From a virus (taxonomy: Duplodnaviria; Heunggongvirae; Uroviricota; Caudoviricetes): a DNA stretch of 41,037 bases. Positions 35,601 to 38,600 of this stretch are shown here, piece by piece. Location: positions 1-41,037 of the IMG/VR virus record IMGVR_UViG_2684623059_000003; one strand, 5' to 3'. The first letter of the stretch is position 1. Each line of letters starts with the position of its first letter. A program made the position numbers.

Positions 35601-38600
35601 TCTGGCGCGCGTTGCTGGTTAGCCAGAAACACTGACTGATGAGGCTGACGATGGAATTTAAAGATTTACCGTCTGATGTACAGAAAACAGCAGCTCATAC
35701 ATTGCATTCTGTGCTGCGAGAAATCGGGAAAGATATTGCAAGCGAGCCAGCAAAAGATCTGGCCCGGAAAATCAAGACCGCTTTCGTTGAGCTTTATAAT
35801 GTTGGCACTGACTCTGAAACTGTCGAGACCAAGACCGTAAGTTCACCAATATTCTCACTTGAGCCAGGCGTATTAGCAGGTGAAATATGCACCGAGATTT
35901 CCAGCGAACTGCTTCCGGTAATACGAGAAGCAATTTGCCGTCGCGGTTTGGATGGAAGTTACGATCATGACGTCCTGCAAGTTCTCAGGACAATGGTGAC
36001 TTCACTGGGGATTTGATCCCTGCGTCCTCTAACCTTTTGATATAGCGGTCCTCCAAGAAGCGGTAAATTTTGTCGAAATCATCTTTCCCCTCTGATTTAT
36101 TCAGAGGATTACAGGACCCGTAAGTAGCGGCATACATTTCAACCGTTTTATCAAAAATATAAGAGACAAATTCTTCTTTAGTCATATAGATTTCCTTCTT
36201 GGTTATTCGGGATAAGAAGGATACCACCTCGCCTGACGTGGTTAAAAGCAGGCACACAACACGAAAGCGCACGGCGAAGTTCGTCTCACTGTACGGTGTC
36301 GTTAAATTTAATTCGACCGTGCGCTTCCGGTTGTGGCAACCCGCGAAATGGCGCGGCGGTAAGTATGGCGGGGTTATTCCTTCCCCGTTGAGGACACCGG
36401 GTTGTCAGGTTGACCATACGCTTAAGTGACAACCCCGCTGCAACGCCCTCTGTTATCAATTTTCTGGTGACGTTTGGCGGTATCAGTTTTACTCCGTGAC
36501 TGCTCTGCCGCCCTTTTTAAAGTGAATTTTGTGATGCGGTGAATGCGGCTAAGCGCACGCGGAACAGTTAAAACCAAAAACAGTGTTATGGGTGGATTCT
36601 CTGTATCCGGCGTTAATTGTTAACTGGTTAACGTCACCTGGAGGCACCAGGCACCGCATCACAAAATTCATTGTTGAGGACGCGATAATGGAAACGTTAT
36701 TACCAAACGTTAATACGTCTGAAGGTTGTTTTGAAATTGGTGTCAGAATCAGTAACTCTGCATTTACTGAAGATGCCATTAACAAGAGAAAACACGAACG
36801 GGAGTTATTAAATAAAATATGCATTCTTTCAATGCTGGCACGTTTACGCCCGATGCAAAAAGGATGCTGGCAATGAATACAGCAATTGCTCTCACTCTGA
36901 TAGTTTTTCTTAATACGGGCGAGCCTGTTGACCTGGTTATTGACATTTACGGTTCAATGAAAGAATGCACGGCTGCCGCAGCGGAACAGAAAACTCCCGG
37001 TAACTGTTATCCGGTCGATAAAGTTATTCATATGGACAATAACGAAATCCCGGCAGGACTTAAAACAGCACCGTAATTAATATCCGGTTTCATTTTTATA
37101 TGCCAGCAATGGCAGGGATTTGTTCACCCTTAAATCTGTAATGAGGTTAAAACAAAATGAGTAAAGTCTTTATTTGCGCCGCCATTCCGGACGAACAGGC
37201 AACAGCAGAAGGCGCTAAACCTGTGGCCACTGCCATTGAAGCAGGCGACGAACGCCGGGCAAGAGCCAAATTTAGCTGGTTATTTCTGGAACAATACCCG
37301 GAAGCTCAGGACTGTGCTTATAAATTTCTTGTCTGCGAGGATAAACCCGGCATGGCCCGCCCTGCTCTCGATTCCTGGGATTCCGAATATATGCAGGAAA
37401 ACCGCTGGAATGAGGAGTCGGCTTCCTTTGTTCCGGTCGACCCTGAACCGGATACAGAAACTGTTAACTTTAATCAGTTATCTGAAGACAAGCGGGCTGC
37501 TGTCCTTGTCAGATTCGGTACACATGAAAACATCACCGTGGATATGGTCATCAATGCAAGCGGGCTTCTCGGCGATGACGAGATGACGACTTTTGATGGA
37601 CACCTCACTGAAGCAATTATCAGGACTAAAGAAATTAACGCCATGTATCCTGAGCGTCAGACTGAGTACATCAACGACGCCAGATGTGATTTAAAACCAA
37701 CAGCCAAATGGCCCGACGTTCAGGCGTATTTTCTCGAACGTAAAAAACGCATGGAAAAGGAGCGCAAAGAAGGTGGAGCATATAATTCCGTCGTCGATCT
37801 TGCCCGCGCCAGAGTCAACCGGCAAGGCACTGAAAACTCTGCAGGAAAAACTGGCTCCGTAACTGCTGTCATTCGTCGCGCATACAGGCAGACATGGAAA
37901 ACACTGGATGAAGAACTGGCCTACGCTCTCTGGCCTGGTGATGTGGATGCCGGAAACATTGACGGCAGCATCCATCGCTGGGCAAAAAATGAAGTTATCG
38001 ACAACGACCGCGAAGACTGGAAGCGTATCTCGGCATCAATGCGCAAACAGCCTGATGCCCTTCGCTACGACCGCCAGACTATTTTTGGCCTTGTCCGTGA
38101 ACGTCCGATCGACATTCACAAAGACCCTGTGGCACTGAACAAATACATTACTGAATACCTGACGACAAAAGGCGTGTTTGAAGATGAAGAAACGGATCAG
38201 AGTCCTGCTGATGTTCTCCGGTCGTCAGCAACACAAACTGATGCAGTGGAAACAGAAGTATCTGGCACCCAAAAAAATGAAAGCGCACTGGAAGCTGAAC
38301 CATCTGTAGAGCGTGAAGGACCGTTCTACTTCCTCTTTACCGATAAGGACGGCGAAAAATACGGTCGCGCAAACAAACTGTCTGGTCTGAATAAGGCGCT
38401 GGCTGCCGGGGCTACTGAAGTCACCAAAGAAGAATACGTCGCCCGAAAAAATGGCACATACACAGGCTTACCGCAAAATACCAATGCCGCACAAAACTCT
38501 GAACAACCAGAGCCGGTAAAAGTTAACACGGTCGAAACAAATAAAAAAATGGAGACAGAAAATCTGCCTGATGCCGACAAAGTGCTTACTGCATCACGTG

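Follow-up and report, generated by a model that had tools for sequence, protein, structure and literature searches.

The closest described counterpart of the system analyzed here is the sieB–esc–sas module of phage P22, in which the antisense RNA sas base-pairs with the sieB mRNA so that Esc, the internal product, is translated in place of SieB, allowing P22 to escape its own exclusion system (PMC12197685, PMC7067206; Ranade and Poteete, 1993, as summarised there). Sequencing of small RNAs (sRNA-seq) from P22-infected cells has delimited sas as an RNA of 127 nt, 11387–11513 on the minus strand (PMC13397905, 2026), composed of hairpins followed by ACCACCGAGCCUGACGUGGUUAAAAGACAGGCACA (PMC13397905). 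These coordinates agree with the P22 record AF217253, in which the plus-strand gene sieB starts at 11509, so that sas is antisense to the sieB start and leader. Other short structured RNAs complementary to a part of a phage mRNA are lambda OOP (target cII) and P22 sar (target ant), which exert secondary control in the lysis–lysogeny programme (PMC5415839). OOP and sar are each transcribed from a promoter and ended by a terminator of their own, and act on 3′ or intergenic regions of genes of the lytic programme. A sas-type RNA, in contrast, is part of the transcript of an early operon, and its target is the start of a gene expressed in the lysogen. Here we analyze a sas-like element in a 41,037-nt DNA of a tailed phage (IMG/VR record IMGVR_UViG_2684623059_000003, positions 1–41,037, referred to below as the window). 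The window is a lambdoid prophage with head, tail and lysis genes, two tRNAs, and an integrase at the right end; the element adjoins ORF66, an open reading frame (ORF) of 66 codons which lies in reverse orientation inside the dicB operon. The reading we favor, at somewhat better than even confidence, is that ORF66 is a prophage accessory gene (moron) occupying the sieB slot, expressed in the prophage and silenced by a sas-like RNA when the dicB operon fires.

By sequence comparison, the element adjoining ORF66 is homologous to P22 sas. Window positions 36223–36256 (plus strand) align to nucleotides 79–113 of sas with 32 of the 34 window bases identical and one gap. A blastn search of the element against cultured phages yields 96 records, including P22, ST104, SfV, SfII, SfIV, mEp460, phiES15, and Klebsiella and Hafnia phages, the P22 records matching at 91% identity (E 1e-3). 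In P22 the element is situated just upstream of the annotated promoter P_sieB and of sieB/esc, which are oriented against the pL operon.

The gene order is c2, pL, gene 24 (the N analogue), sieB (reverse), element, ral in P22, and dicA-like repressor, ydfA, ORF125, ORF66 (reverse), element, DicF, dicB in the window. Judged by this synteny, ORF66 is in the slot and in the orientation of sieB. Both modules feature a reverse-oriented prophage-type gene in the early-left operon, past the first early gene or genes and before the remaining ones; in both, the homologous 3′ domain of the antisense RNA is immediately preceded by a hairpin, and the antisense RNA covers the promoter, leader, Shine–Dalgarno sequence (SD) and first codons of the reverse gene. 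In the window, the predicted sas-like region is complementary to the start codon, SD, leader and promoter of ORF66. The modules differ in the product: that of ORF66 has 66 aa and is soluble, with two helices, and bears no relation to SieB (192 aa, membrane). They also differ in that the 3′ end of ORF66 overlaps a co-inherited convergent gene.

The element covers approximately 75 nt (36181–36256) immediately upstream of ORF66. Upstream regions of ORF66 homologues have in common a block of about 45 nt, GCCTGyCTTTTmACCACnTCAGGCnnGGTGGTATC, and the pattern TTTTMACCACNTCAGGCNNGGTGGTATC occurs a single time in the window, with zero occurrences expected by chance. We observe the element in at least 120 IMG/VR contigs, where it forms an island of near-invariant sequence between unrelated flanks (32 contexts). 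An SD and an ATG are present within approximately 35 nt of the element in 121 of 134 copies. The reverse-strand cargo ORFs behind it divide, in our sample, into at least 13 families without relation to one another, and neither Pfam nor PADLOC assigns any of them.

Other cargos found in the ORF66 slot are an unrelated 81-aa ORF (O157:H7), a zinc-ribbon gene of the ECs_2282 family, and a 106-aa membrane ORF. The ECs_2282-family putative zinc-binding protein of O157:H7 prophages has the same slot, orientation, upstream element and SD–ATG spacing as ORF66, but is a zinc ribbon, unrelated to it. The 81-aa cargo (O157:H7 strain FRIK2455, locus L008, 1761–2006, minus strand) and the 106-aa predicted membrane protein (strain 50579417, locus L019, 1447–1767, minus strand) are not annotated by the Prokaryotic Genome Annotation Pipeline (PGAP). 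One more variant of the dicB operon, locus L009 of E. coli 2013C-4830, carries a 148-aa predicted membrane protein as the reverse cargo (1344–1790, minus strand) and a relBE toxin–antitoxin pair between the repressor and ydfA.

In Rfam 15, the only matches are DicF and a sub-threshold STnc100, and neither the window element nor the sas locus of P22 itself is matched. Comparison by eye with a sigma54 promoter, RfaH ops, Chi, DnaA box, CRP site, boxA/nut, HK022 put, attC and an intrinsic terminator yielded no candidate that fits.

In the plus-strand RNA, the complement of the ORF66 SD constitutes the 5′ arm of a hairpin, H1. The arms covary among 34–35 variants (UCCUUUUA/UAAAAGGA, UCUUGG/CCAAGA, UCCUCUGAG/CUCGAGAGGA, and others), and the mean folding energy is –8.9 kcal/mol for native hairpins, compared to –5.9 for chimeric arm pairs and –4.2 for shuffles. 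The predicted H1 stem-loop is thus supported by comparison of the variants. Moreover, for 26 of 34 variants H1 folds more stably when read in the operon sense, where there are 30 G.U pairs compared to 15 in the other sense (Wilcoxon p = 0.004), and this bias points to an RNA made in the operon sense. Sequestration of the SD in the ORF66 mRNA by the same hairpin is unlikely, as the predicted transcription start falls inside the hairpin loop and, in the UCUUGG class, the SD is outside the stem. In SfV (NC_003444, locus L147), a hairpin beside the sas-like element, 2557–2589, is annotated as "putative rho-independent terminator"; it has no U-tract and is more likely a sas-type hairpin.

The 3′ domain contains two complementary 5-bp pairs, ACCAC/GUGGU and GCCUG/CAGGC, in an order that allows for an H-type pseudoknot. 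Such a pseudoknot, with L1 of 3 nt and an A-rich L3 of 7 nt, is geometrically plausible, though speculative; the few variants split 3 to 1 over which strand pairs. All variation in this domain, including one indel, falls outside the two 5-bp helices.

The opposite strand carries promoter-like features. A TATNNT hexamer (TATCCT, TATCTT, TATACT or TATGCT) is found next to GGTGG in 133 of 139 copies, with TG two bases upstream, and in these 133 copies the ATG lies 26–36 nt downstream of the hexamer. Six copies lack TATNNT (P22, phage 22, two Hafnia phages, L009); in these the distance to the ATG is 67–73 nt, and in three of the types another –10-like element is observed in between: the annotated P_sieB in P22, TGTATAAT in L009 (where it is duplicated downstream of the hairpin), and TGATATTTT in Hafnia phage Meifeng. 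These regularities support, but do not prove, the prediction that ORF66 has an extended –10 promoter, TGgTATCCT (36226–36218), with a start near 36211 and a leader of about 26 nt. The –35 position is also conserved, which a sas-like RNA on the other strand explains equally well.

It seems that the two strands of this DNA have different uses, one as a promoter and the other as an RNA scaffold, and such a dual role would explain the invariant promoter spacer. A pure sigma70 promoter explains TATNNT; it leaves the invariant spacer unaccounted for, and in P22 the element is retained although TATNNT is absent. The Cedecea copy retains the promoter part and the hairpin without the 3′ domain, as expected if the promoter moves together with the gene.

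One alternative is that the element is only a promoter or operator cassette acting at the DNA level, no functional antisense RNA being made in this prophage. Such a cassette would agree with the frequency of TATNNT and its upstream TG and the fixed distance to the ATG, and could have as its operator the inverted repeat ACCAC-N10-GTGGT in the spacer; the helices of the 3′ domain, moreover, show no compensatory changes. On the other hand, sRNA-seq of P22-infected cells has detected an RNA that includes this very sequence, and P22 retains the element although its promoter is elsewhere. The covariation of the hairpin, together with its higher stability and larger number of G.U pairs in the operon sense, likewise speaks against this alternative, and an immunity-specific operator is hard to reconcile with the occurrence of the element in prophages whose repressors differ. 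We consider this alternative improbable.

We find no terminator-like sites on either strand between 35300 and 36900, and the ORF66 transcript would therefore probably run antisense into ORF125 and ydfA. This bears on a second alternative, raised already in the preliminary description, where transcription of the small gene was proposed to interfere with the dicB operon: a minus-strand promoter would fire against the operon and dampen read-through into the toxic dicF and dicB, the ORF itself being secondary. The lack of a terminator-like site past ORF66 is what such interference would call for, the convergent arrangement is kept in all loci, and no cargo is as conserved as the promoter-like element. 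Still, the cargo ORFs are under purifying selection, and hence are not passengers, the conservation of the –35/–10 spacer is better explained by a sas RNA on the other strand, and the Qin prophage of E. coli K-12 lacks both the –10 and the cargo, while its operon is still repressed by DicA (PMC10448788). The regulation tested in P22 is of the opposite direction as well. As the main explanation, interference has about the same low probability as the DNA cassette; as an additional effect, it could accompany silencing of ORF66 by the RNA. The antisense relation suggested earlier is real, but the proposed direction is less favored than the reverse one, as, given the homology to sas, the documented regulation runs from the operon to the small gene, the operon-sense RNA repressing the reverse gene.

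The steps of silencing would then be as follows. In the lysogen, ORF66 would most likely be transcribed from its own extended –10 promoter. Derepression of the early-left operon, upon induction or by a superinfecting sibling phage, would produce the sas-like plus-strand RNA. This RNA would pair with the leader, SD and AUG of ORF66 (36181–36211) and shut off its synthesis, as sas does with SieB. In the lysogen, ORF66 may perhaps serve to exclude phages or to modulate the host, and the C-terminal domain of ORF125 could act with it as a partner or against it as an antidote. The role of an exclusion or host-modulating factor is suggested by analogy with the sieB slot.

The gene itself is well defined. 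The minus-strand frame 35985..36272 encodes 95 aa if counted from a GTG, and the ATG at 36185–36183, preceded at 7 nt by the AGGA of the SD, yields a 66-aa product, MTKEEFVSYIFDKTVEMYAATYGSCNPLNKSEGKDDFDKIYRFLEDRYIKRLEDAGIKSPVKSPLS, with the stop at 35987–35985. A 66-codon minus-strand ORF with an SD in the dicB operon, an overlap with the upstream plus-strand ORF, and a GC content below that of its surroundings had all been described from the sequence, and hold: the ORF is found at 35985–36185 with the SD AAGAAGGAAA, its 3′ end overlaps the plus-strand ORF 35639..36016 by 32 nt, and its GC content is 0.403, compared to 0.46 for ORF125, 0.524 for the segment 36186–36460, and 0.508 for the window. 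In a near-identical locus of E. coli C it is annotated by PGAP as a "hypothetical protein" (WP_000159335.1), and it matches phrog_34441, of unknown function (E 2e-49).

Homologues from Escherichia, Shigella, Cedecea and metagenomes, at 88, 86, 71, 57, and 54% identity, retain a frame of 65–66 codons. Pairwise ratios of non-synonymous to synonymous substitution rates (dN/dS) among their DNA are 0.08–0.31, with an excess of third-position changes, so the comparison of synonymous and non-synonymous changes called for in the preliminary description speaks for a retained frame. A more distant subfamily of 59–63 aa from E. coli, Atlantibacter and Klebsiella prophages, at approximately 33% identity, agrees with ORF66 in length and helix pattern. 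On this comparative evidence, ORF66 is a genuine protein-coding gene under purifying selection.

A chance ORF, the conservation of which would reflect constraint on the other strand, is already contradicted, and we give it almost no weight. The ORF is short and overlaps ORF125 by 32 nt, and 66 codons alone could arise by chance, but the conservation evidence excludes such an origin. There is no plus-strand ORF over 36017–36185 to impose a constraint, dN/dS stays below 0.31, with the third-position excess, across homologues of 54–88% identity, the frame is retained in the Cedecea copy, which resides in a different operon, and the 33%-identical subfamily has equal length and helix pattern.

The AlphaFold 2 (AF2) model of ORF66 is a two-helix hairpin (H3–21 and H31–54) with a predicted local distance difference test score (pLDDT) of 78. 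The protein is charged, with two predicted amphipathic helices and without a hydrophobic stretch. It has one internal Met, M17, not preceded by an SD-like sequence. A weak match to Pfam Zn_ribbon_16 (E 0.038) is not significant. Among 1.84 billion cluster representatives, searched exhaustively with a hidden Markov model, the family has only 25 members, and among GTDB species genomes there are only four close copies. As modelled, ORF66 is a soluble two-helix protein without known relatives outside its family. Similarity to SieB is not observed, the sole PHROG being phrog_34441. In the literature we find nothing on ECs2282 or on the WP accessions.

These properties also bear on a pair resembling type I toxin–antitoxin systems, with ORF66 as a toxic peptide and the plus-strand RNA as the antitoxin. 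A cis-antisense RNA over the SD and start of a small ORF is the arrangement such a pair would have, and some cargos are membrane proteins (the 106-aa ORF, SieB). ORF66, in contrast, is soluble and charged, consists of two helices and lacks a hydrophobic segment; no promoter belonging to the antisense RNA is evident within the variable cargo sequence; and the diversity of the cargos is too great for all of them to be toxins. We regard such a pair as quite unlikely.

Several observations weigh against silencing of ORF66 by a sas-like RNA. The single-sequence folding energy is unexceptional (z = –0.5); the two 5-bp helices of the 3′ domain are invariant, leaving no covariation to support the pairing, and a few variants (phiES15, Hafnia) break the terminal pair of a helix. 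P22 sas has two hairpins and the window element one, and the geometry differs, as P_sieB is located between the two hairpins, while the predicted ORF66 promoter overlaps a hairpin arm. The –10 site was missed by a simple promoter consensus scan, because only 8 of 12 positions plus the TG match. There is no evident in-frame Esc-like start in ORF66. As regards function, searches of ORF66 against Pfam, NCBIfam and PADLOC gave nothing significant, and its model has no Foldseek match in PDB or BFVD at E <= 0.001. Since ORF66 shows no relation to SieB, does not belong to the membrane proteins, and lacks such a start, the SieB/Esc translational switch is not transferable to it as such.

The convergent partner, ORF125, combines two domains in a mosaic. 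At its N-terminus, 50 residues are common to several PHROGs and to proteins with other C-termini, while its C-terminal domain (approximately 35861–36016) is present with ORF66 in every close-homologue locus. The two overlap at their 3′ ends in L002, L005, L011 and L012, and likewise in the Cedecea locus (L003), where the domain is encoded by an unannotated 65-aa ORF. As ORF66 and the C-terminal domain co-occur in all close-homologue loci, while the N-terminal domain pairs elsewhere, they travel together, and this co-occurrence suggests that the C-terminal domain may be a partner of ORF66. The AF2 model of ORF125 is poor (pLDDT 56), confident only at the N-terminal helical hairpin, and does not suffice for a fold search.

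ORF66 is present in 390 of 5426 complete E. coli genomes (about 7%), while 2361 match some part of the 276-nt query. Genes of the ORF66 family are found antisense in the early-left operon, just downstream of a cI/DicA-type repressor, in at least eight different prophages; in the Cedecea prophage, the homologue, again antisense, is flanked by cro and a cII-like gene. ORF66 is also carried, at 98% and 89% identity, by contigs (L142, L144) that bear the labels of Veillonella parvula and Geobacteraceae metagenome-assembled genomes; these are probably mis-binned enterobacterial prophage contigs.

The Qin prophage of K-12 shares with the window the dicA/dicC immunity region, ydfA, DicF, dicB and ydfD, with 90% identity from 36244 on, but the place taken in the window by ORF125 and the reverse ORF66 is filled in K-12 by ydfB and ydfC, both on the operon strand. 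Homology covers 35416–35630 (through ydfA) and 36244–37200, the cassette in between not being shared. As it resumes at the –35, K-12 lacks the –10, H1 and about 21 nt of the 34-nt sas-like domain. K-12 offers no comparison of transcription start sites, since Qin is devoid of the –10 and cargo, and CPS-53 of the element.

The suggestion that ORF66 could be a moron is borne out by purifying selection, by its presence in about 7% of E. coli genomes, by the position of the cassette between flanks shared with K-12, and by the sieB slot. Similar to morons in the sense of Hendrix and colleagues, ORF66 shows insertion polymorphism and atypical base composition and is probably transcribed independently. 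It differs from them in having no detected terminator, and in that its promoter region is a conserved shared cassette located outside the variable insert.

What we observe is a known arrangement, the sieB/sas slot of P22, with a new cargo, ORF66. In the literature searched, no paper extends sas to other cargos, and it is treated as specific to P22. If the RNA acts as in P22, the element would be a portable switch for genes useful in the lysogen and harmful to the phage's own lytic growth, a sequence handle for finding candidate exclusion or defence genes, and a second regulatory RNA besides DicF in the dicB operon. ORF66, now labelled "hypothetical", thereby obtains a testable regulatory model.

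A broader proposal, which we find attractive but doubtful, is that the sas-type RNA with the overlapping promoter constitutes a widespread "lysogen on, lytic off" cassette, marking a hitherto unrecognised hotspot of at least 13 unrelated small proteins, most of them unannotated, in the early-left operon of Enterobacteriaceae lambdoid prophages. Many of these proteins could be exclusion or defence factors needing self-immunity, as SieB does, and ORF66 with the C-terminal domain of ORF125 would then form an effector/escape pair similar to SieB/Esc.

Table 1. Positions of genes, RNAs and predicted regulatory sites around ORF66 in the window.
Feature	Position	Strand	Basis or remark
cro/dicC-like gene	34582–34836	minus	
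dicA-like repressor	34836–35294	plus	
ydfA/DUF1391	35484–35639		upstream of ORF125 in the dicB operon
ORF125 (phrog_33007)	35639..36016	plus	convergent with ORF66; 125 aa, or 121 aa from ATG at 35651
ORF66	35985..36185	minus	ORF listing
SD of ORF66, AAGAAGGAAA	36191..36200	minus	sequence
Predicted extended –10 of ORF66, TG-g-TATCCT	36218..36226	minus	inferred from comparison of copies
Possible –35, TTAACC	36240..36245	minus	sequence; weak, 4/6; 16 nt upstream of –10
sas-like antisense RNA region	36181..36270	plus (operon sense)	ends inferred by homology to P22 sas sRNA-seq ends
Hairpin H1, UCCUUCUUG / UAAGAAGGA	36193..36221	plus	fold; 9 bp, 11-nt loop
Conserved 3′ domain of sas-like RNA, ACCACCucGCCUGAcGUGGUuAAAAGCAGGCACA	36223..36256	plus	near-invariant island
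DicF small RNA	36462..36513	plus	Rfam RF00039, 76.7 bits, E 2e-16
dicB	36688–36876		PF05358; followed by ydfD, then exonuclease

Elsewhere in the prophage, tRNA-Gly(tcc) and tRNA-Thr(tgt) are adjacent (26503–26656, minus strand). DicF is downstream of the sas-like element in the same operon transcript. Directly 3′ of the sas-like domain we observe a CA-rich stretch, CACACAACAC (36254–36263, plus strand), which is kept in many unrelated contexts and is similar to motifs bound by the GcvB seed; it is followed, upstream of DicF, by a long inverted repeat, GCGCACGG...CCGTGCGC (36270–36325, plus strand). The sub-threshold STnc100 match (36511–36720, plus strand; 39.1 bits, compared to the gathering score of 47) falls in the leader between DicF and dicB, and an ORF from the same stretch (MRLSARG...) has counterparts just past the element in a yfdR-type prophage (L008). 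The plus strand over 36190–36690 resembles a single long structured non-coding leader.

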